Shown here piece by piece: positions 420-10,538 of a DNA stretch of 11,464 nucleotides; position 1 is the first letter of the stretch; every line of letters starts with the position of its first letter. Position numbers and translations under genes: made by a program. A model generated the notes under the pieces. That model was not told the origin of the DNA and did no database searches. It saw only the letters and a list, made by a program, of their open reading frames with translations. This stretch comes from a bacterium (GTDB lineage: Bacteria; SAR324; NAC60-12): assembly GCA_965205865.1 (NCBI GenBank), contig CBDBHR010000008.1, positions 1 through 11,464 on the forward strand, written 5' to 3'.

Positions 420-1949
420 TCAGGCCGCTTGTTTGAGTTGTCTTTTTTTCAACTCAATCATTTTGCAAAAATTATAGGTTAATGCTTTTTCCAGCAACTC
501 TGCCCGAACGTTTTCAATCCCTCTGCGCATAACTTGTCCGAAATGGAAACGATGCTTAAGATGAAACATCAACGACTCTGCAGCAGATCTTCCATTTCGT
601 GATTCCAAATAGATTTCACTTTCCCATTCTTCAATCGGGGTCATCTTTTTTCCCTTTGCCCCACTAATACTAAAAACCTTAACGCCTTTGCCCATCCACT
701 TTTCTCTGATCGCCTGATTGGCATATCCATCATCAAGGCTCACTTCAGAGGGAATGGTGATGGTGCATCGCAAATGTTCAACAAGGGCAGGGTCGAGTTG
801 CCCTGAATCAGCAGCATTGCCCTCCGGAGTAATTAACACGGAAATAAAACCATTTCCGCTCCTTCCTAATTGAGGCTTATATCCGATAAGCGCTTCTCGA
901 TCTCCCTTTTGAATATAAGCCGAGCTCTGATCGGAAAGACTCAATACTTTCTCAGTAGAAGGAACCTTCTTTTCTTCAAAAACTCTTTGATGACAGTAGA
1001 TGATTACCCGTTGCAAATTAGAAATATCTTCATTCATCATTTCAATGAGGCGAATCAAACGCGTTTTCCGAGAAGGGGGGAGAAGAGCTTTTTGGGCACG
1101 GATATCCACCTTTGCCATTTCTTTTAAAAATTTCCCATGAGCGCTTTGAGCTTTCTTCAATAGGGTTTTGTAATGTTTTTTTCGCTTCGTTTTACTGTCC
1201 TTTTTACCTGTCTCAAAAGCCATCATCTTAGAGAGCTTATTCATCTCCTTGATGAGGAAATCAAAATTTCTTTCACTGATCTCAGCGATTCCAAATGTAT
1301 CAAGGGAACGCCCTCGATGGTAGCTTCGCTCCACGAGACGAGTCAATATCGACGAATCAGTAGGCCAAGCTGTATTTCCTTTTACAGAGGTGCTATCCAG
1401 TTTTAAAATATCAAAATCGTCCAACTCTTCATCGAGAACCATTCGAATTTGAGCATCGAAAATAAACTGTCTGCTCTCGTTGCTGACAGCATTGACATTA
1501 TCAAGGATTGTACTCGCTCCCGGCATTTTCAATCCACGGTTGAGCAGAAGCAGATGCAGTGTGATTGACTCTGAAAGAAATATTTGGGCCGTTTGGGATT
1601 TGATACTTCCTAAATATCCCCGAATCATCATAAAAAGGTAGACTAAAAAAGCCGACATCCGAGGACACCCTATTTCCAGCCTCAGTTCTTCCGGCTTCAA
1701 TTCCTCATCTTCTACGGGAAGATGAGGAAGCCATGGATTCCGGGCTTCCTGCCATCGTTTATCCTCTAAACGCTCTTTCTTTTTATTTCTTGCGTATTTC
1801 TCCAAATCCTGTTCAATTTTGTCCAATATCTCCGGCTCTCGCTCAGACAATTGATCAAGTTCTGATAAGAAATTTTCAAATTCTGTATCAGGAGCGCTTA
1901 AAAAAAGATGTTTTTCTGCTCGAATGAATGGTTTCATTTTGGGTGCCAT
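420..1949 (-). CDS. DDE transposase, 509 aa (ISNCY/IS5-like)
   Basis: Single long ORF inside the TIRs. Motifs LDSTSVKGNTAWPTDSSIL, EKVLSLSD...YIQKG, SLDDGY and RSAAESLMFHLK form the DDE triad region. Confidence 0.9.
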   Translation of the reverse strand: MAPKMKPFIRAEKHLFLSAPDTEFENFLSELDQLSEREPEILDKIEQDLEKYARNKKKERLEDKRWQEARNPWLPHLPVEDEELKPEELRLEIGCPRMSAFLVYLFMMIRGYLGSIKSQTAQIFLSESITLHLLLLNRGLKMPGASTILDNVNAVSNESRQFIFDAQIRMVLDEELDDFDILKLDSTSVKGNTAWPTDSSILTRLVERSYHRGRSLDTFGIAEISERNFDFLIKEMNKLSKMMAFETGKKDSKTKRKKHYKTLLKKAQSAHGKFLKEMAKVDIRAQKALLPPSRKTRLIRLIEMMNEDISNLQRVIIYCHQRVFEEKKVPSTEKVLSLSDQSSAYIQKGDREALIGYKPQLGRSGNGFISVLITPEGNAADSGQLDPALVEHLRCTITIPSEVSLDDGYANQAIREKWMGKGVKVFSISGAKGKKMTPIEEWESEIYLESRNGRSAAESLMFHLKHRFHFGQVMRRGIENVRAELLEKALTYNFCKMIELKKRQLKQAA

Positions 1950-2626: not shown

Positions 2627-2755
2627 TCGAAATGAATATCAACATTAGATTAAATGTAACCTAAATCCTGCAATTAGATGACAATCAAACATGGAAATGG
2701 TAATATACTCAAATAGTTAACACCAGAATCAACATTTTAAGAGATCACCATTACC

Positions 2756-4114
2756 ATGAAAAACAAACGTAGCGCAAGATCGGCAAGAACGACAGCAAAA
2801 AACATCCATATCAGCCAGGGAGGCAGAGACCTGACCGCGCAAGCAGGCTTGATTCCGGTTGTCAAATTTTTTCACAAAGAAGGGATTGTTTCAAAGACAG
2901 AGCAGACCGTAGATCATCGGCGTGGCGCCACGGGTCTTTATGACGCGGTGGACATGGTCATTTTGTCGGTGGTCGGCATTGTTGGTGGCGCCCGTTCGAT
3001 TGTGACAGTTTGGAACGACCGTGTTTTGAGTCGTGTGGCCGGTTGGCTGAGGATTCCGGATGAAACCACATTCGGCCGCATACTGCGTACTTTCACAGAG
3101 AAAAACATCAATGAGATGGAGAGCTTGAACCATCGGATTCGAGCCGGTATCTGGCGCAAGGCGCTTCGAAGTGGGACAAGCATCGTTGGGATGTTATACT
3201 GTCTTGTGATTGACGTGGATTCCACTGTGAAAACGGCCTACGGCAAGCAACAAGGAGTGTCTGTCGGATATAATCCCCACAAACGCGGTGCAGCTTCGTA
3301 TCATCCTCTGCTGGCATTTTGCGCAGAGACAAAGGAGATTCTTCAGGGTTGGCTTCGTGATGGGAGTGCCTATACCAGCAATGGAGTCGTTGAATTCATG
3401 CGGCAACTTCTTGCTCACTTTCCAAATCGGACTCGCATTCTGTTTCGTGGAGACAGTGGTTTTTTTGTGGGGGATTTGCTGGATTTCCTCGACGAACGAG
3501 GCCATGGCTATCTGATCAAGGTCAAACTCAAGGGGCTTGTCTCGTTGTTGGAAACCCAAAAATGGCAAAAAGTGAAGGGGCAGCCCGCTTGGGAAGGGTG
3601 TGAGTTTTCCCACCAATGTGAAACTTGGAGGAGGTCAAGAAAATTCATGGCCGTACGCAGGGAGAAAGAGGAGGAACTCAAAGGGATGGCCACCCTCTTT
3701 GAGATGAAGGAGTACGATTATTTTTGTTATGTTCTCACTGACGCGCTCACTCCCTGGCAGGTTCACAAAGAGTATGGCCAGAGGGCGGTCGCTGAGACAT
3801 GGATTGAGGAAGCAAAAAATCAAACTGCGCTGGCTCAGATTAAAACCGACGATTTTTGGGCCAACAGCGCCTTGTTCCAATGCGCGATACTCGCTTACAA
3901 CACGCTGCGCTGGATGGCCCTTTGTAGTGGTAACGCAATACTGCGCCGTTGGGAACCGGCCACCATGCGCACCTATCTTGTCCGAATGGCAGGAAAATGG
4001 ACGAGTGGCGCTCGTCAACAAAAACTGAGAGTTCCGGAAAGAACACTTTACAATGCTCAATGGGATGCATGGGTCGCTGTTGAGAGACCTAGATCCTTTG
4101 TTTCACTCCAGTAA
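2756..4114 (+). CDS. IS1380-family DDE transposase, 452 aa
   Basis: LTAQAGL, VIDVDSTVKTAYGKQQGVSVGYNP...YHPLLAF, FRGDSGFF, YGQRAVAETWIEEAK and FWANSALFQ..ILAYN motifs. Confidence 0.93.
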   Translation: MKNKRSARSARTTAKNIHISQGGRDLTAQAGLIPVVKFFHKEGIVSKTEQTVDHRRGATGLYDAVDMVILSVVGIVGGARSIVTVWNDRVLSRVAGWLRIPDETTFGRILRTFTEKNINEMESLNHRIRAGIWRKALRSGTSIVGMLYCLVIDVDSTVKTAYGKQQGVSVGYNPHKRGAASYHPLLAFCAETKEILQGWLRDGSAYTSNGVVEFMRQLLAHFPNRTRILFRGDSGFFVGDLLDFLDERGHGYLIKVKLKGLVSLLETQKWQKVKGQPAWEGCEFSHQCETWRRSRKFMAVRREKEEELKGMATLFEMKEYDYFCYVLTDALTPWQVHKEYGQRAVAETWIEEAKNQTALAQIKTDDFWANSALFQCAILAYNTLRWMALCSGNAILRRWEPATMRTYLVRMAGKWTSGARQQKLRVPERTLYNAQWDAWVAVERPRSFVSLQ

Positions 4115-4168
4115 ATACATTTTGCTGAGATGTAGATTCCCAAATCCAGGGAGAAGTACGTCTTGAAT

Positions 4169-4189
4169 CTTGTGCCCGCGAAAGCGGGT
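4169..4189 (+). repeat. 21-bp REP-like mini-palindrome, copy 1
   Basis: CTTGTGCCCGCGAAAGCGGGT: CCCGC-GAAA-GCGGG hairpin preceded by CTTGT. 18/21 identical to the reverse complement of 4425-4445. Confidence 0.7.
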
Positions 4190-4346
4190 ATCAGATCATC
4201 ACAAAATATGACGATCTAATGGAGGGCGGAAAAACCTTTATGAGCAAGGACTGATGGAAATTCAACTCTCAAATCCTTTTTTTTAAAAAAACCTCTCGAA
4301 AGAGTGGGGGGAAACTCAATCAAAATATTCAATTGCAGGATTTAGG

Positions 4347-4375
4347 TATTATTCTTTTTTCCATTGTGTCCCCTT
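4347..4375 (-). pseudogene. RBS plus first six codons (MEKRII) of a gene cut off by IS1380
   Basis: AAGGGGA (4375-4369), ATG at 4364, and six codons ending exactly at the IS1380 TIR. No continuation on the other side of the IS. Confidence 0.5.
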
Positions 4376-4388
4376 ACATTTGAGGTGC

Positions 4389-4420
4389 AATAAAAAGATT
4401 CACCCGCCCTGGGACGAATC
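4389..4420 (-). terminator. Intrinsic terminator-like hairpin within a 5' leader
   Basis: GATTCGTCCC-AGGGC-GGGTGAATC followed by TTTTTATT on the minus strand, ending about 14 nt before the RBS. Confidence 0.55.
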
Positions 4421-4500
4421 GGATCCCCGCTTTCGCGAGGACAAGTTTTTGTACAGCAGACACGACGTCTGCCACGATCAACCCCACGACGGGGGTGACA
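4397..4500 (-). ncRNA. Candidate structured leader RNA (three-hairpin repeat, isolated copy)
   Basis: CCCC-GTCGT-GGGG, GCAGAC-GTCGT-GTCTGC, an A-run, then the GATTCG..GGGTGAATC hairpin. Clear homology to copies at 10229-10307 and 10355-10432. Confidence 0.55.
4425..4445 (-). repeat. 21-bp REP-like mini-palindrome, copy 2 (inserted in the leader repeat)
   Basis: CTTGTCCTCGCGAAAGCGGGG on the minus strand. Absent at the homologous position (AAAAA^TCCGATT) of the other leader copies. Confidence 0.75.
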
Positions 4501-4511
4501 AGTTTGATGAA

Positions 4512-4540
4512 ATTATCTATTTGTGAGGAATCAATGTCAA
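4512..4540 (-). promoter_or_regulatory. Sigma70-type promoter
   Basis: TTGACA (4540-4535), 17-nt spacer, GATAAT (4517-4512). Predicted start near 4505, directly before the first hairpin of the repeat. Confidence 0.7.
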
Positions 4541-4731
4541 TGGGCGCATCACTGATTTATGGCTTCAAAAATTCTGATAAATGCCTCAGAAAAATTGAAG
4601 GAGGTATCGGATTTTCAACCCTTCAGTGAGATGAGTATCGCCAGGATTTACCAGTGGGAAGGAGGAGGATGGGAGATACGAGTTATTAGGCTACGATCTT
4701 TTCTTATTTCATGTTGCCAAACGATATACAG

Positions 4732-5627: not shown

Positions 5628-6803
5628 ATGCCAGCCATTTATGCCTACCTGGACTGTGGAATTCCAGAGAACGGTGTAGCAAGGGTGAGATGTGAATGTG
5701 GAGAAGACTTCTTTGTGGCCTTTTCCTGCAAAAAAAGAATGGTCTGTCCCAGTTGCTCGACAAAAAGGTCAATCCTCTTTGGCGAGAAAGTTCGGCAAAT
5801 CGTCAAGCCGTTTCCTCACCTTCATGTGACCTTCACCATCCCGAAAATACTCAGAGGTTATTTCCGCAGAAACAGAAAATTATTGAAATTGTTGATCCAA
5901 AGCGCCAATTTTGCCATCGAACACTATTTTCACGAAGCTTTGGGTATGAAGGATGGCTATACTGGGGGAATCTATTGTATCCAATCCCATGGTTCTCTCC
6001 TAAATTTTCACCCCCACATTCACTCTCTGGTTCTTGGAGGAATCCTGAAAGATGATAAATTCTATCAACCCTTCCATATTTCTACCGATATCATTGCCAA
6101 AATATTCCGAGCAAGACTCCTGGCGGTCTTACTCAAGCAAGAAGTTATCACACAAGAACTCATCGACCTGCTGATGTCCTGGAATTATAACTCCGGCTTT
6201 CAGGTCCATAGTGATCAAAAAATCAACGGAGCTAATGGTGATCGTATTGAAAAAATTGCCAGATATATGAGCCGGGCAGCCATCTCGGTCGAGAGAGTCG
6301 AGTTCAATCCCGAAGAGAACACGGTAACGGTTTATGAGAAACAAAAGAAAACTTCTTCCTCCAAAAAGGCCCATTACGATATATTGGAGTTTATGGCCCT
6401 ATTGGCAGGGCATATCCCTTCACCCTACGAAACAATCACTTTTTATTATGGGATTTATAGCAGCTCCTATCGAGGCAAGGAAAGAAAAGAAAAAAGAGGA
6501 GAGAGCCCAATGCAGATGGAAAAGATCAAAGGAAAAGCGATAGCCAGCGCAAGTTGGGCACGATTGATCCATAAGATCTTCGAGGTGGATCCTCTGCTAT
6601 GTCCAAACTGCGGCAAGGAGATGAAGATCATCGCATTTATTACCAATCATCAAGAAGTCAAAAAAATTTTAAAGCATATCGGAGAAGAAACCCAAAGAGC
6701 GCCGCCACTGCCATCTATCACCCCCTATGAGACGGATGACTACTATGCCGACTACATCCCCCCTGATGAAGTCTATTTTGCTGATGAAGAATGGGTATCT
6801 TGA
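5628..6803 (+). CDS. IS91/ISCR-family rolling-circle (HUH) transposase; extreme N-terminus probably degraded
   Basis: Zn-binding YLDCG..RVRCECG..VAFSCKKRMVCPSC, HVTFTIP, HUH motif FHPHIH, KIARYMSR, YYGIYS and WARLIHKIFEVDPLLCPNCG. Homology-like sequence (..ENDYGYLRKEV) extends upstream to an in-frame TAG at 5571-5573. Confidence 0.88.
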   Translation: MPAIYAYLDCGIPENGVARVRCECGEDFFVAFSCKKRMVCPSCSTKRSILFGEKVRQIVKPFPHLHVTFTIPKILRGYFRRNRKLLKLLIQSANFAIEHYFHEALGMKDGYTGGIYCIQSHGSLLNFHPHIHSLVLGGILKDDKFYQPFHISTDIIAKIFRARLLAVLLKQEVITQELIDLLMSWNYNSGFQVHSDQKINGANGDRIEKIARYMSRAAISVERVEFNPEENTVTVYEKQKKTSSSKKAHYDILEFMALLAGHIPSPYETITFYYGIYSSSYRGKERKEKRGESPMQMEKIKGKAIASASWARLIHKIFEVDPLLCPNCGKEMKIIAFITNHQEVKKILKHIGEETQRAPPLPSITPYETDDYYADYIPPDEVYFADEEWVS

Positions 6804-6985
6804 AAATTCTCCAGAAAAACCCAGGGATCGCTTTGTCCAAAATCCGGCATTTCAAACCAGCATAAAAGAAAAGCGATAAAAAAATGAACATGCCGCACAC
6901 CCTCCCAGGAAACCTTCCAAAAAAGCAAAAATATCCCTCCTAATTTTGTCTTTACACACATATTTCCAAATGCTATCGTCTTGTG

Positions 6986-7008
6986 TAATTTTTGATTTTC
7001 CTATGTGG
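6986..7008 (+). mobile_element. Putative oriIS terminus of the IS91/ISCR-like element
   Basis: TTTTTGATTTTCCTAT-GTGG about 200 bp downstream of the transposase stop resembles the IS91/ISCR ori motif TTTGAA(A/C)TTCCTAT-N4. It coincides with the methyltransferase truncation point. Confidence 0.7.
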
Positions 7009-8190
7009 CCTAATTCCGCATTGGGAGCACTAGAGAGCAGCAATCTACCCAGCAAGTCAAATTTTCAAAGACTTTCCGGTCTTGCCGCAAAAACGGGGAA
7101 AGCCAACTTTGATATTGCGGAATGGATGCTGATTGCATTGCTTGAGAGCCTCAATAACAGTACGGCTTGTTTAGCAATGCTCTGTAAAACGGCAACTGCG
7201 CGTAAAGTATTAAAGTATTTGTGGAGTCATGAGGCGAATATCTATCATTCTTCCATGCATCGGATTGATGCCAAAAAATACTTTGAAGTATCGGTGGATG
7301 CTTGTCTCTTCATCACTCATGTAAAGAAAGGCAGAAGGGAGAAAACCGCAGCCGTTTACTCAGATTTGAATTTTGAAGATCCGATTTCCAAATTGGGAAT
7401 TCGTGGAAATGAGTTGATTGCAAATATTGATGATTACCAACAATTTCAGGATATTGATGGAATTGAATATTACAAATGGCGCTCTGGTCTTAAACATGAT
7501 GCTGCAAAAGTCATGGAGTTAACCAAAAGTAATGCCCATTATATTAATGGGTTTGGAGAACAGATAGAGATTGAAGTTGCCTATGTTTATCCCCTTTTGA
7601 AATCTTCTGATTTGGCAAATCAACGTCTGACTCCCAGAAAGCATGTTATCGTAACTCAATGCAATATTGGAGATGAGACTGAGCCTCTCATGGAAGAAGC
7701 CCCCAAAACATGGCAATATTTAGAAAAATACTCCAATATTTTAGGCAATAGAAAAAGTAGCATTTATAAAAATCGCCCCCCATTTTCTATTTTTGGCATT
7801 GGAGATTATAGTTTTTCTCCATGGAAGGTTGCTATCTCCGGATTGTACAAGAAAGTCGAGTTTTCTGTGATTGGTAATGTTGAAGGTAAGCCAATTATGC
7901 TTGATGATACCTGCTACTTTATTCCCTGCGAATTAGAGGAAGAAGCCACTTTTATTAGTCATCTATTAAATTCTGAAATATCTCAAAAGTTTTTAAATTC
8001 TCTCATTTTTTTTGATTCAAAACGACCTGTCAATATAGACGTGTTAAAGCGCATTGATTTAAAAAAATTGGCAGAACGTTACCACCTTGAGGAGCAAGCT
8101 ATCCAGTATCTCTCAAATGCTCAAGTAATGTTCACACAACAATCTCTCTTCGTATTCGAAAACCAAGAAAGTTATCGAACAATTGGATGA
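7009..8190 (+). pseudogene. 5'-truncated N6-adenine DNA methyltransferase (restriction-modification type)
   Basis: NSALGALESSNLPSKSNFQRLSGLAAKTGKANFDIAEWML is the segment that normally follows GNPPWVT in this MTase family. Also LAMLCKTATARKVL, IDAKKYFEVSVDAC and KVAISGLYK..KPIMLDDTCYF. No SAM-binding motif I or NPPW motif IV is present. Confidence 0.75.
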
Positions 8191-8366: not shown

Positions 8367-10196
8367 CTAAAACCCCATTTCCTTCTTCAGCTCCTGGTCA
8401 ATCCAGAGGCGGGCGAAAATGGAACGACGGTCCGGGAGTCCCAGATCAGATTCACCGTAATAACCCTTGACCCACGCCTGGATCGCGTTAAAGGATGGAA
8501 CTTTAGGACCCCATACATAAGTGAAATTCTTTATCTGGTACATATCTGCCTCTTTAGCTAGCTTAATCTGCTCCTCAATGGTGGTAGCTGCGGAGGCGGC
8601 GTCAACCATGGCGTCATAAGCCGGGTCCTTGAATCCGGGACGGTTCCCTTTAAATGTCGATTGAAGGAACTGTAGCCCCCACATAACACTATAATCTATG
8701 GCGGCCACCATATTGACCATGCCTTCGAACGTATGTTCGTTGATACTAGAGATATGGCGAGGGACATCCACTGTCTTAATCTGTACATGAACTCCGATGT
8801 CAGCCCAGTAGGCGGCCGCTAATTCTGCATAGTCTAAAGGGAAATACTCAGAGAGGTTTTCCAAGGTGGTCTTGAATCGAATGCCGTCGGCGCCACGCGG
8901 ATACTCAGCCTCATCAAGCAACGTTTCTGCCCCTTCCGGGTCATAGGTATAGCGTTCCTTGATCTCTTTGGGCCACTCTTCAAATGGGATGTGATACTCG
9001 ACGAGACCATCCCCTAGCATCCCCTGAGGTTTCCACTTTGCATAACTCTTAAAGAAGGTCTTGTTAATGGTCTCAAGGTCCAGTGCCTTCTGCATTGCTA
9101 TGCGCACCCTGATGTCGTCAAAGGGCGGCTTGAGCATGTCCAGAGCAAAGCTCTGATTCGAACGATTGTATTGCGAGAATAGCTCGATTTCGGGGTTCAT
9201 CTGCTGGAGCCTGAATACCTGGTCGATAGACTTTATGTCAGCTCCCGTGTTGGAACCTGCGTAGTCAAGCCTACCTGAACGAAGTGCCGCCAGAATTGTT
9301 GCATCCTCTTTCATAATCAGGCCCTTTAACCGGTCAGTATAGGGCAGGCGGTTCTCCGGGTATTTTTCGTCGGTGCCCCAGTAGTCAGGATTCTTGTCGT
9401 AGGTCATAGAACTGCCCTCGACCCACTCAGTCATCATCCAGGGTCCGGTGCCGACGAGGTCCCTCCAATCTTTAATGTCGCCGTGTTGCTGGATGACCTC
9501 GGGGGGTAACACCCACAGACAGGGGCCGATGAGGATCTCCCTCAGCGCATCGAGGTTTACCGCCTTCAGCTTGATAACAACCGTCCATTTGTCGGTGGTT
9601 GTTACCGATTCGAATGGTAGACTGACGAGTGCCGAACAAATGCCGGCAAGGGTCGGTTCGCTGAAGCCGCTGCCCAGACCCAACATCCGGTGGAAAGAAT
9701 ACTCGACGTCACTGGCAGTTAGCTCTCGACCGGACATCGGCGCCTTGTTGTGCCATTTGACTCCGCTACGGATCTTGAACATGTACGTGAGAGGATCCGG
9801 GGTCTCCCAGCTTTGCGCCAGCTGCCCTTTTATGGCAAACAGAGGGAATAACTGATTTTGGAAGCGAAATAGATCCCTGTCCGTTGCCCAGTTCCCGATG
9901 CCTAGCTTTTCTGAAACGCCACTGAGGGGGTCGCAGGTAGAGAACCAGATGTCAGTATTCGGCGGCACACACTTCTGGGCATAGGTGATTGACCCGCCAT
10001 ACTCTGGTGCGGTCAATACCTGCCCGGTGGCCGGATCTTTGACCATCTTTTTCTCAGCAGCAGCTGTCGGGCCCATCGAAAGGACAAATACACCCAGGAT
10101 GAGAGCCAGCAGCACCGAGAGGAGTTTTGCAGCAGACCAGGTGCCTGCCGCGATCAGCCCCACGACGGGGGCGAAGCATTTCTTCATAATACTCAT
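8367..10196 (-). CDS. ABC transporter substrate-binding protein, family 5 (OppA/DppA/NikA-like), 609 aa; alternative in-frame start at 10325
   Basis: LAQSWETPDPLTYMFKIRSGVKWH..GRELTASDVEYSF, VGTGPW, KNPDYW, PPFDDIRVRIAMQKALD and YDPEGAETLLDEA. Signal peptide (MSIMKK...LLSVLLALILGVFVLSMGPTAAA-EK). AGAGG RBS upstream of 10196. Confidence 0.93.
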   Translation of the reverse strand: MSIMKKCFAPVVGLIAAGTWSAAKLLSVLLALILGVFVLSMGPTAAAEKKMVKDPATGQVLTAPEYGGSITYAQKCVPPNTDIWFSTCDPLSGVSEKLGIGNWATDRDLFRFQNQLFPLFAIKGQLAQSWETPDPLTYMFKIRSGVKWHNKAPMSGRELTASDVEYSFHRMLGLGSGFSEPTLAGICSALVSLPFESVTTTDKWTVVIKLKAVNLDALREILIGPCLWVLPPEVIQQHGDIKDWRDLVGTGPWMMTEWVEGSSMTYDKNPDYWGTDEKYPENRLPYTDRLKGLIMKEDATILAALRSGRLDYAGSNTGADIKSIDQVFRLQQMNPEIELFSQYNRSNQSFALDMLKPPFDDIRVRIAMQKALDLETINKTFFKSYAKWKPQGMLGDGLVEYHIPFEEWPKEIKERYTYDPEGAETLLDEAEYPRGADGIRFKTTLENLSEYFPLDYAELAAAYWADIGVHVQIKTVDVPRHISSINEHTFEGMVNMVAAIDYSVMWGLQFLQSTFKGNRPGFKDPAYDAMVDAASAATTIEEQIKLAKEADMYQIKNFTYVWGPKVPSFNAIQAWVKGYYGESDLGLPDRRSIFARLWIDQELKKEMGF

Positions 10197-10433
10197 AATA
10201 ACCTCTTTTAATTGAGGGTGTTGAGAGCGATTCACCCGCCATGGGGCGAATCGGATTTTTGCAGCAGACACGGCGTCTGCCACGGTCAGCCCCATGATGG
10301 GGGCGAAAAGTTGCTTCAAAGACATATGAACTCCTTTACAAGAGATTGAAAATAATTCACCCCACCATGGAGCGAATCGGGTTTTTGCAGCAGACACCAC
10401 GTCTGCCACGGTCAGCCCCACCAAAAGGGTGAG
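10125..10433 (-). repeat. Tandem array of the three-hairpin repeat (two full copies plus one partial), period 126-132 bp
   Basis: GCAGCAGAC anchor at 10129, 10261 and 10387. Full units at 10229-10307 and 10355-10432; the 10125-10175 unit lacks hairpin 3 and lies in signal-peptide codons. Confidence 0.85.
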
Positions 10434-10462
10434 GCATAAGAAAACAATTTATTCGGTTTCAT
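10412..10462 (-). CDS. Possible leader peptide MKPNKLFSYASPFWWG (16 aa)
   Basis: GAGGGA RBS-like sequence, ATG at 10462, TGA at 10414-10412. The TTT TGG TGG codons overlap hairpin 1 of the first repeat. Confidence 0.35.
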   Translation of the reverse strand: MKPNKLFSYASPFWWG

Positions 10463-10538
10463 ACTATTATTCCCTCATTACAGATTAATCATTCCCCACC
10501 TTCTTCACTCACTTGAGCGTGAAGCATTCTCGGATGAC

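Follow-up and report, generated by a model that had tools for sequence, protein, structure and literature searches.

What is the structured element that stands in front of transporter genes in a SAR324 bacterium of the NAC60-12 lineage, and is it, as first proposed, a riboswitch or attenuator? The question was raised by a contig of 11,464 nucleotides (nt; GenBank assembly GCA_965205865.1, contig CBDBHR010000008.1), referred to here at its full length as the window, which is one entire contig of a 4.74-Mb genome (G000) assembled in 30 contigs. One copy of the element, at 4364–4540 on the minus strand, had been put forward as a candidate undescribed riboswitch or attenuator made of a promoter, two twin-loop hairpins, a terminator and a ribosome-binding site. 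We find an undescribed variant of structured mRNA leader, confined to one genus among the genomes searched and placed in sense orientation at the 5′ end of genes for family-5 solute-binding proteins (SBPs; Pfam SBP_bac_5, PF00496). As for its function, sequence comparison points, at a probability that we put at about one half, to a lineage-specific, modular and structured leader that acts in cis, is probably translated and would set mRNA stability or translation.

The leader module is about 125–135 nt long and comprises three hairpins (H1, H2 and H3), a CCUC sequence complementary to the Shine–Dalgarno (SD) motif (anti-SD), an SD and an AUG. Read along the mRNA, the order is SD, AUG, a few lysine-rich codons, H1, H2, H3 and the CCUC anti-SD, followed by the next SD and AUG, so that every unit terminates in a strong SD and ATG. 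The original prediction had counted four copies; an iterated nhmmer search of the window's own genome returned 105 hits at 61 loci, that is, about 105 copies. A locus holds one to four hits and usually consists of zero to two full units (~124 model positions) and then a unit that ends after H2, and this final half unit translates as the beginning of an SBP_bac_5 open reading frame (ORF) of 600–700 amino acids. By tblastn, 175 SBP-like regions were mapped in the same genome, 125 of them at least 1400 nt long, and 55 of these 125 carry the leader. Conversely, an SBP region lies directly downstream on the same strand at 59 of the 61 leader loci; the two loci without one, namely the copy at 4364–4540, which is cut by an insertion sequence (IS), and C23:160839, are both relics. 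The H2 motif has 101 matches in the genome, none of them outside leader loci. The copies are therefore not scattered: like dispersed repeats, they are modular, hairpin-forming units of variable tandem number, but they show none of the scatter without gene-family or strand bias that marks such repeats, and they stand to the genes served in the constant position and orientation expected of a generic cis-acting leader.

Across these copies the stems are kept and the loops vary, as the first description had noted and as the family alignment bears out. Pairing was scored in a 52-row alignment for four local helices (H1, H2, H3 and CCUC with GAGG), in which 91.7% of cells are paired overall, compared with 36–47% when the partners are slid by 1–3 columns. 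H1 is paired in 89.8% of cells, with changes on both sides at three of its five pairs; H2 in 93.9%, with a loop that is always 5 nt long and hypervariable in sequence; H3 in 91.2%; and the anti-SD/SD helix in 90.2%. Cells with both sides changed number 37, against 14.2 ± 3.1 in shuffled alignments, and none of 500 shuffles reached 37. Within the stems, 180 G-U cells were counted against 45 A-C cells, the numbers of pair columns that show either kind being similar (18 and 17). The minimum free energy (MFE) had z < −2 in 47 of 51 distinct units.

Column variability lacks a three-base periodicity; it is highest in the loops, and the invariant columns are those of the H2 and H3 stems, even at third codon positions. 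In the translated half units (30 distinct rows, from 37 after removal of five outlier rows and duplicates), third-position entropy is 0.19–0.20 in the H1 and H2 stems compared with 0.97 downstream, and reaches 0.5–1.5 in the loops. Depending on the subtype, the 3′ arm of H3 falls in one of two reading frames, with its nucleotides kept. A protein-coding repeat under amino-acid selection was rejected because of the missing periodicity and this two-frame arm. At the nucleotide level, leaders have a median identity of 0.76; the SBPs served share 0.44–0.46 amino-acid identity, and the two measures are hardly correlated (Spearman 0.12). There is thus good, although not decisive, reason to think that what is maintained in the hairpins is the nucleotide sequence of the sense strand, over and above anything that it encodes.

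The copy that raised the question has all the parts first ascribed to it. On the minus strand, a promoter-like site made of TTGACA (4540–4535), a 17-nt spacer and GATAAT (4517–4512) agrees with the consensus at 11 of 12 positions and is the sole such site found by a promoter scan of 4200–4700; as a promoter it (4512–4540) remains a prediction. Because it occupies the place where other units have their own SD and AUG, this copy lacks a start codon of its own. The twin-loop hairpins follow as H1 (4496–4481, five pairs, a 6-nt loop) and H2 (4473–4455, seven pairs, loop GUCGU), whose loops read GUCGU or CGUCGU and whose pairing is family-wide. The terminator hairpin is likewise in place: H3 at 4420–4397, of nine pairs, is followed by TTTTTATT with a T-run at 4396–4389, and the scan scores it as terminator-like. 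Beyond it lie the CCUC anti-SD (4385–4382), the SD-like AAGGGGA (4375–4369) and ATG (4364–4362), together spanning 4362–4385. The corresponding 173-nt RNA has an MFE of −58 kcal/mol, compared with −44 ± 3.8 for shuffled sequences (z = −3.7; 0 of 200 shuffles as stable).

Two details of the first description needed amendment. The A-run between H2 and H3 exists as a stretch, but an extra hairpin (4440–4425) is inserted within it. The ATG exists too, but it opens a frame of only six codons before the terminal inverted repeat of an IS. These leftover SBP codons (MEKRII, 4347–4364, minus strand) are, over 18 nt, identical to the gene start behind the leader at G000:C30:196695; past 4347 the window diverges from that relative into the end of the IS. 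The IS (2659–4347, plus strand) has perfect 17-nt terminal inverted repeats and a DDE transposase gene at 2756–4114 (Pfam DDE_Tnp_1_4, E = 6e-49). The copy at 4364–4540 is an orphaned relic, its SBP gene having been cut after codon 6, and it serves no gene now.

Does the family behave as a riboswitch or attenuator? What stands of the proposed cis-regulatory RNA family is a structured family with a strict bias of position and strand and no match in Rfam; the riboswitch and the general attenuator readings are not supported. A riboswitch, in which an aptamer formed by the hairpins would bind a metabolite and so control termination or translation, would suit the position 5′ of transporter genes and, in this copy, the hairpin with its T-run and nearby SD, and it would have to be a new one. 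The statement that no known riboswitch class is recognisable holds for the window (Rfam 15, gathering thresholds, no matches); the same search returned no matches in 12 further loci from this genome and a congener, and a permissive scan of 4250–4600 gave chance-level hits alone, far below gathering scores. However, conserved junction, loop or other unpaired nucleotides are missing, the loops being the most variable columns and the invariant ones lying in stems and linkers. The three short hairpins of the unit are independent, and covariation supports no multi-helix junction among them; half of the element lies within coding sequence; and the number of tandem copies differs from array to array. 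The SBPs served are 44% identical to each other and probably bind different solutes. Moreover, the modules carry their own SD and AUG, stay in frame and are called as protein in public records, which speaks against a riboswitch or attenuator leader alike. A metabolite-binding element is therefore highly improbable.

Nor is termination supported as a general role across the family. At least six T residues among the 8 nt after H3 occur in 10 of 62 units; 15 units have five and 37 have four or fewer. The antiterminator arrangement that the MFE fold suggested, a long-range H1:H3 pairing, shows no covariation. This fold, the one alternative pairing examined, scored no higher than shuffles on any measure and was rejected. 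The T-run subtype includes the copy at 4364–4540, in which a terminator-like hairpin with its T-run lies between the promoter-like site and the gene start, and its intact relatives have a further short module with a second H3-like hairpin before the SBP start. An attenuator role is possible for this subtype, and H3 in the T-run minority, the copy at 4364–4540 included, could cause transcription termination too. Leaders of the ANTAR type have two hairpins whose hexaloops hold conserved positions; here the H2 loop has 5 nt, the H1 loop about 6 nt, and neither has a conserved position.

If the small-molecule ligand is taken out of the original idea, what is left is a regulated operator: an RNA-binding protein or a small RNA would bind the hairpins and co-regulate the ~55 SBP genes as a post-transcriptional regulon, by termination or antitermination in the units with a T-run. 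That one conserved element precedes dozens of genes of a single functional class fits such an operator, as does the near invariance of stem and linker sequence beyond what pairing requires, and so does the placing of H3 and a T-run between the promoter-like site and the gene in this copy and its closest relatives, the intact ones having a second such hairpin. Yet the loops, where proteins or kissing RNAs usually make contact, are the most variable part, a strong T-run is confined to those 10 of 62 units, and the alternative antiterminator pairing is without covariation. No copy in antisense orientation that could act as an RNA in trans was found among the 61 loci, those that are not sense to an SBP gene being the two relics, and no candidate regulator was found. 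We consider this operator unlikely.

The modules can also be read as protein. Frame is kept from module to module in 51 of 60 units. An extra nucleotide (+1) in H3, present in 16 units, is compensated by −1 or −4 in the spacer in 10 of the 16, and uncompensated cases lie mostly in decayed loci. Upstream of the next ATG, the gene's frame is free of stops in 49 of 60 units and the other two frames in 33 and 4. Public gene calls take the modules as the protein N-terminus: when the first 125 translated residues were searched against 5.8 billion proteins, 33 clusters matched, all 33 with PF00496. In one SBP subfamily (loci 3, 13 and 28), the homologue of H1–H2 is the actual signal peptide, and by this homology the modules are duplicated SBP regions that encode the translation start and the signal peptide.

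The recurrence of the unit about 6 kb away from the first, at a transporter gene, was correctly noted; there, at ~10089–10449 on the minus strand, two full units and a partial one form a tandem array. Unit ‘a’, the first of the array, spans 10316–10449 (covariance-model match, 100.5 bits), and unit ‘b’, with its own SD and an ATG at 10325–10323, spans 10188–10323 (153.2 bits); from this ATG to the next, at 10196, is 129 nt, and the frame is kept. Partial unit ‘c’ (10120–10196; nhmmer model positions 2–66) has H1 and H2 only and supplies the initial ~25 codons of the SBP precursor, before the hydrophobic core of the signal peptide. This third copy, at ~10.1 kb, thus lies outside any untranslated region and codes for the precursor's N-terminus. 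The gene served (8367–10196, minus strand) encodes a family-5 ATP-binding cassette solute-binding protein (PF00496, E = 8e-61) and reached none of the NCBIfam equivalog cut-offs. A variant of this SBP in another assembly (P0033) has one module fewer.

On a FastTree phylogeny of 110 SBPs, built from the 540 C-terminal residues of regions with an ORF of 480 amino acids or more, the presence of the leader requires 27 changes, at least 19 of them forced by supported branches, compared with a mean of 36 for shuffled labels; none of 500 shuffles was as low. Near-identical SBPs can have different leaders, and in one orthologous pair, ~94% identical from the end of the signal peptide on, the congener has this leader and the genome studied here has a different, also modular one. 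Two module types (A and B) are mixed inside single arrays (P0016 and P0022). By these comparisons, leader modules have been swapped between genes as 5′ cassettes.

Such exchange invites the view that the modules are functionless scars of frequent unequal recombination and gene conversion among the more than 100 paralogous 5′ ends, their hairpins being inherited from signal-peptide coding sequence and the kept frame merely limiting the harm from leftover SD-AUG sites. The homology of the modules to a real signal-peptide coding region, the copy number that differs between strains (P0033), the mixing of types A and B, the swapping of leaders between genes and orthologues, and the restriction to one genus among the searched genomes are all as expected of scars. 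Neutral scars, however, should decay evenly, and here the stems, synonymous sites included, are fixed next to widely diverged loops, A-C variants are rare but G-U variants common, and leader identity is far above that of the genes and hardly tracks it. We judge scars of this kind improbable.

Exchange could also be what the element is for at the level of DNA, with inverted repeats and conserved flanks used as recombination handles that move 5′ cassettes or whole SBP genes. Arrays do expand and contract, presence of the leader is scattered over the SBP tree, and the breakpoint of cassette exchange lies in the conserved signal-peptide region. Against this, the strand-specific excess of G-U over A-C fits RNA pairing better; the distance between the H3 arms varies and the inner part is still self-complementary, again a better fit to RNA pairing than to a DNA site bound by protein; the loci have no linked recombinase; and repeats can undergo ordinary homologous recombination without a dedicated site. 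A DNA-level element is very unlikely. Two narrower candidates of this sort were also set aside: a DNA operator at H2/H3, which has conserved half-sites and variable centres, because H3-arm spacing varies and G-U far exceeds A-C; and an integron attC-like or REP-like mobile site, given the strict association with SBP genes.

For an RNA leader that is conserved in structure and probably translated, several points weigh on the other side. By the most conservative count of covariation, nine pairs are changed on both sides, compared with 7.2 ± 1.5 expected, a value that 92 of 500 shuffles reach and that is not significant. The copies are paralogues, so that counts of cells overstate the independent events, and the structure tested was derived from the same sequences; the anti-SD helix has four pairs only. 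Gene conversion among the 5′ cassettes could cause part of the high leader identity without selection. With regard to frame, the compensated frameshifts represent perhaps two or three independent events, and frame −1 is the one that is also open in 33 of 60 units. Frame conservation across modules is suggestive only, because by length classes the frame-keeping and frame-breaking variants are nearly balanced. In the window itself, unit ‘a’ has a 1-nt deletion (10440–10470) relative to its closest relative, G000:C28:61632, which breaks its own upstream ORF after 16 codons; its hairpins are intact despite the deletion.

The element is restricted to one genus among the genomes searched. By BLAST, the unit was found in 2 of 41 related genomes, a sample. 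A covariance model built from the 52 of 60 full units that lack an insert of 24 or 45 nt gave 73 matches in the window's own genome and 54 in one congener, and no matches in 43 other genomes of the family (completeness 51–100%; a sample and not proof of absence). In the literature, no description of such an element was found.

How might the leader work? In the model that we favour, it would act in cis on its mRNA and sense no ligand. The hairpins would stabilise and insulate the 5′ region, and the short CCUC:GAGG helix would partly mask each SD. Whichever upstream AUG a ribosome used, it would continue in frame into the precursor, opening the structure on its way and freeing the next start, and signal-peptide cleavage would then remove whichever N-terminus had been made, giving one mature protein from all starts. 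Tentatively, we raise the further possibility, which we regard as doubtful, that this amounts to an undescribed device in which tandem, in-frame, hairpin-insulated start modules before a cleavable signal peptide offer several entries for ribosomes, with signal peptidase removing the differences at the N-terminus; the modules would be portable cassettes, moved about among the more than 100 transporter genes so that expression of these is reset.

Further observations concern the SBP genes and their upstream regions. The expansion of the family is extreme, with 125 near-full-length copies in a 4.74-Mb genome. SBP genes without the H1-H2-H3 leader (for example C24:41560, C10:10670 and C28:509700) show at least two other modular leader types, one with SD-ATG modules, a 6-pair hairpin and upstream CCCAGTT tandem repeats, the other with a series of in-frame SD-ATG modules without hairpins; both types share the frame of the SBP gene. 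About 200 nt upstream of several leader arrays (for example C30:783900 and C26:291000), a further conserved region common to several SBP loci contains two hairpins, one small and one long with a T-run behind it, and a promoter-like TTGACA/TTGGCA site. When upstream regions were grouped by single linkage, 90 of 94 were merged, which allowed no typing of leaders.

The window also holds repeats and mobile elements of other kinds. The hairpin within the A-run of the copy at 4364–4540 is an inserted small repeat (4424–4452, minus strand; core 4440–4425 with a GAAA loop) that is absent from 52 of 60 full units and not ancestral to the unit. Its core has 72 copies in the genome, 35 on the plus and 37 on the minus strand, with an inverted partner at 4166–4196 in the window, and it is found inserted in frame, as 24 or 45 nt, in leader units and in the N-terminal codons of several SBP genes. 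An end of the IS at 2659–4347 also abuts the SD or start of two more SBP genes (G000:C30 near 1294556 and G000:C22 near 3160), which hints at a target preference for A-rich SBP start regions. A second IS (216–2054; transposase 420–1949, minus strand) lies inside another transposase-like sequence (fragments 1–279 and 2077–2334); in each of the four public runs compared, some contigs lack this IS and join 215 to 2055. An ORF of 414 amino acids (6946–8190, plus strand) with no Pfam or NCBIfam match adjoins a gene for an IS91-type Y2 transposase (5628–6803, plus strand).

If the modules do set expression, a large repertoire for nutrient uptake would be tuned by portable 5′ cassettes and not by gene-by-gene regulators. 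The family would then be a clean natural case of RNA structure selected inside coding sequence, with multiple in-frame starts made harmless by signal-peptide cleavage. It also carries a caution for RNA-motif discovery: what looks like a riboswitch, with a promoter, hairpins, a terminator and a ribosome-binding site before a transporter gene, can be a duplicated gene start.

Compared with known systems, the element shares traits with several and coincides with none of those considered here. Riboswitches and antiterminator leaders likewise lie 5′ of transporter genes and, as in the copy at 4364–4540, can place a hairpin and T-run before the SD; here, by contrast, there are no conserved unpaired nucleotides and no Rfam match, T-runs are in the minority, and the modules read as protein. 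The BOX repeats of pneumococci and the REP/BIME, ERIC and Correia repeats are scattered among unrelated genes and orientations. Like this element, they are modular, can form hairpins, vary in tandem number and reach dozens of copies per genome, but the leader precedes members of a single gene family in sense orientation and partly encodes the N-terminus. In attenuation of the ermC type, a translated upstream segment is combined with hairpins and a masked SD before the main start, and here, too, upstream translation could unmask the next SD; the differences are that 49 of 60 units have no stop between leader ORF and gene, that no stalling motif was identified and that the alternative pairing lacks covariation.

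Alternative in-frame start sites that give rise to N-terminal proteoforms are described for Salmonella genes in PMC11005335, as single alternative starts, together with the observation that signal processing of OmpX and PagC can make the mature products indistinguishable. Several in-frame starts in one gene are the feature in common; that paper describes no repeated structured start modules common to a gene family.

Leaders of the ompA type, found on envelope-protein mRNAs, offer a further parallel. In the 5′ untranslated region of E. coli ompA, the mRNA of an abundant exported protein, stable hairpins bracket a single-stranded ribosome-binding segment and act in cis as a stabiliser, with no ligand. 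The SBP leaders would resemble it in having stable 5′ hairpins ahead of a gene for an exported protein and in the proposed ligand-free action in cis; they differ in that their hairpins lie within tandem SD-AUG modules, in frame with the gene and common to ~55 paralogous genes.

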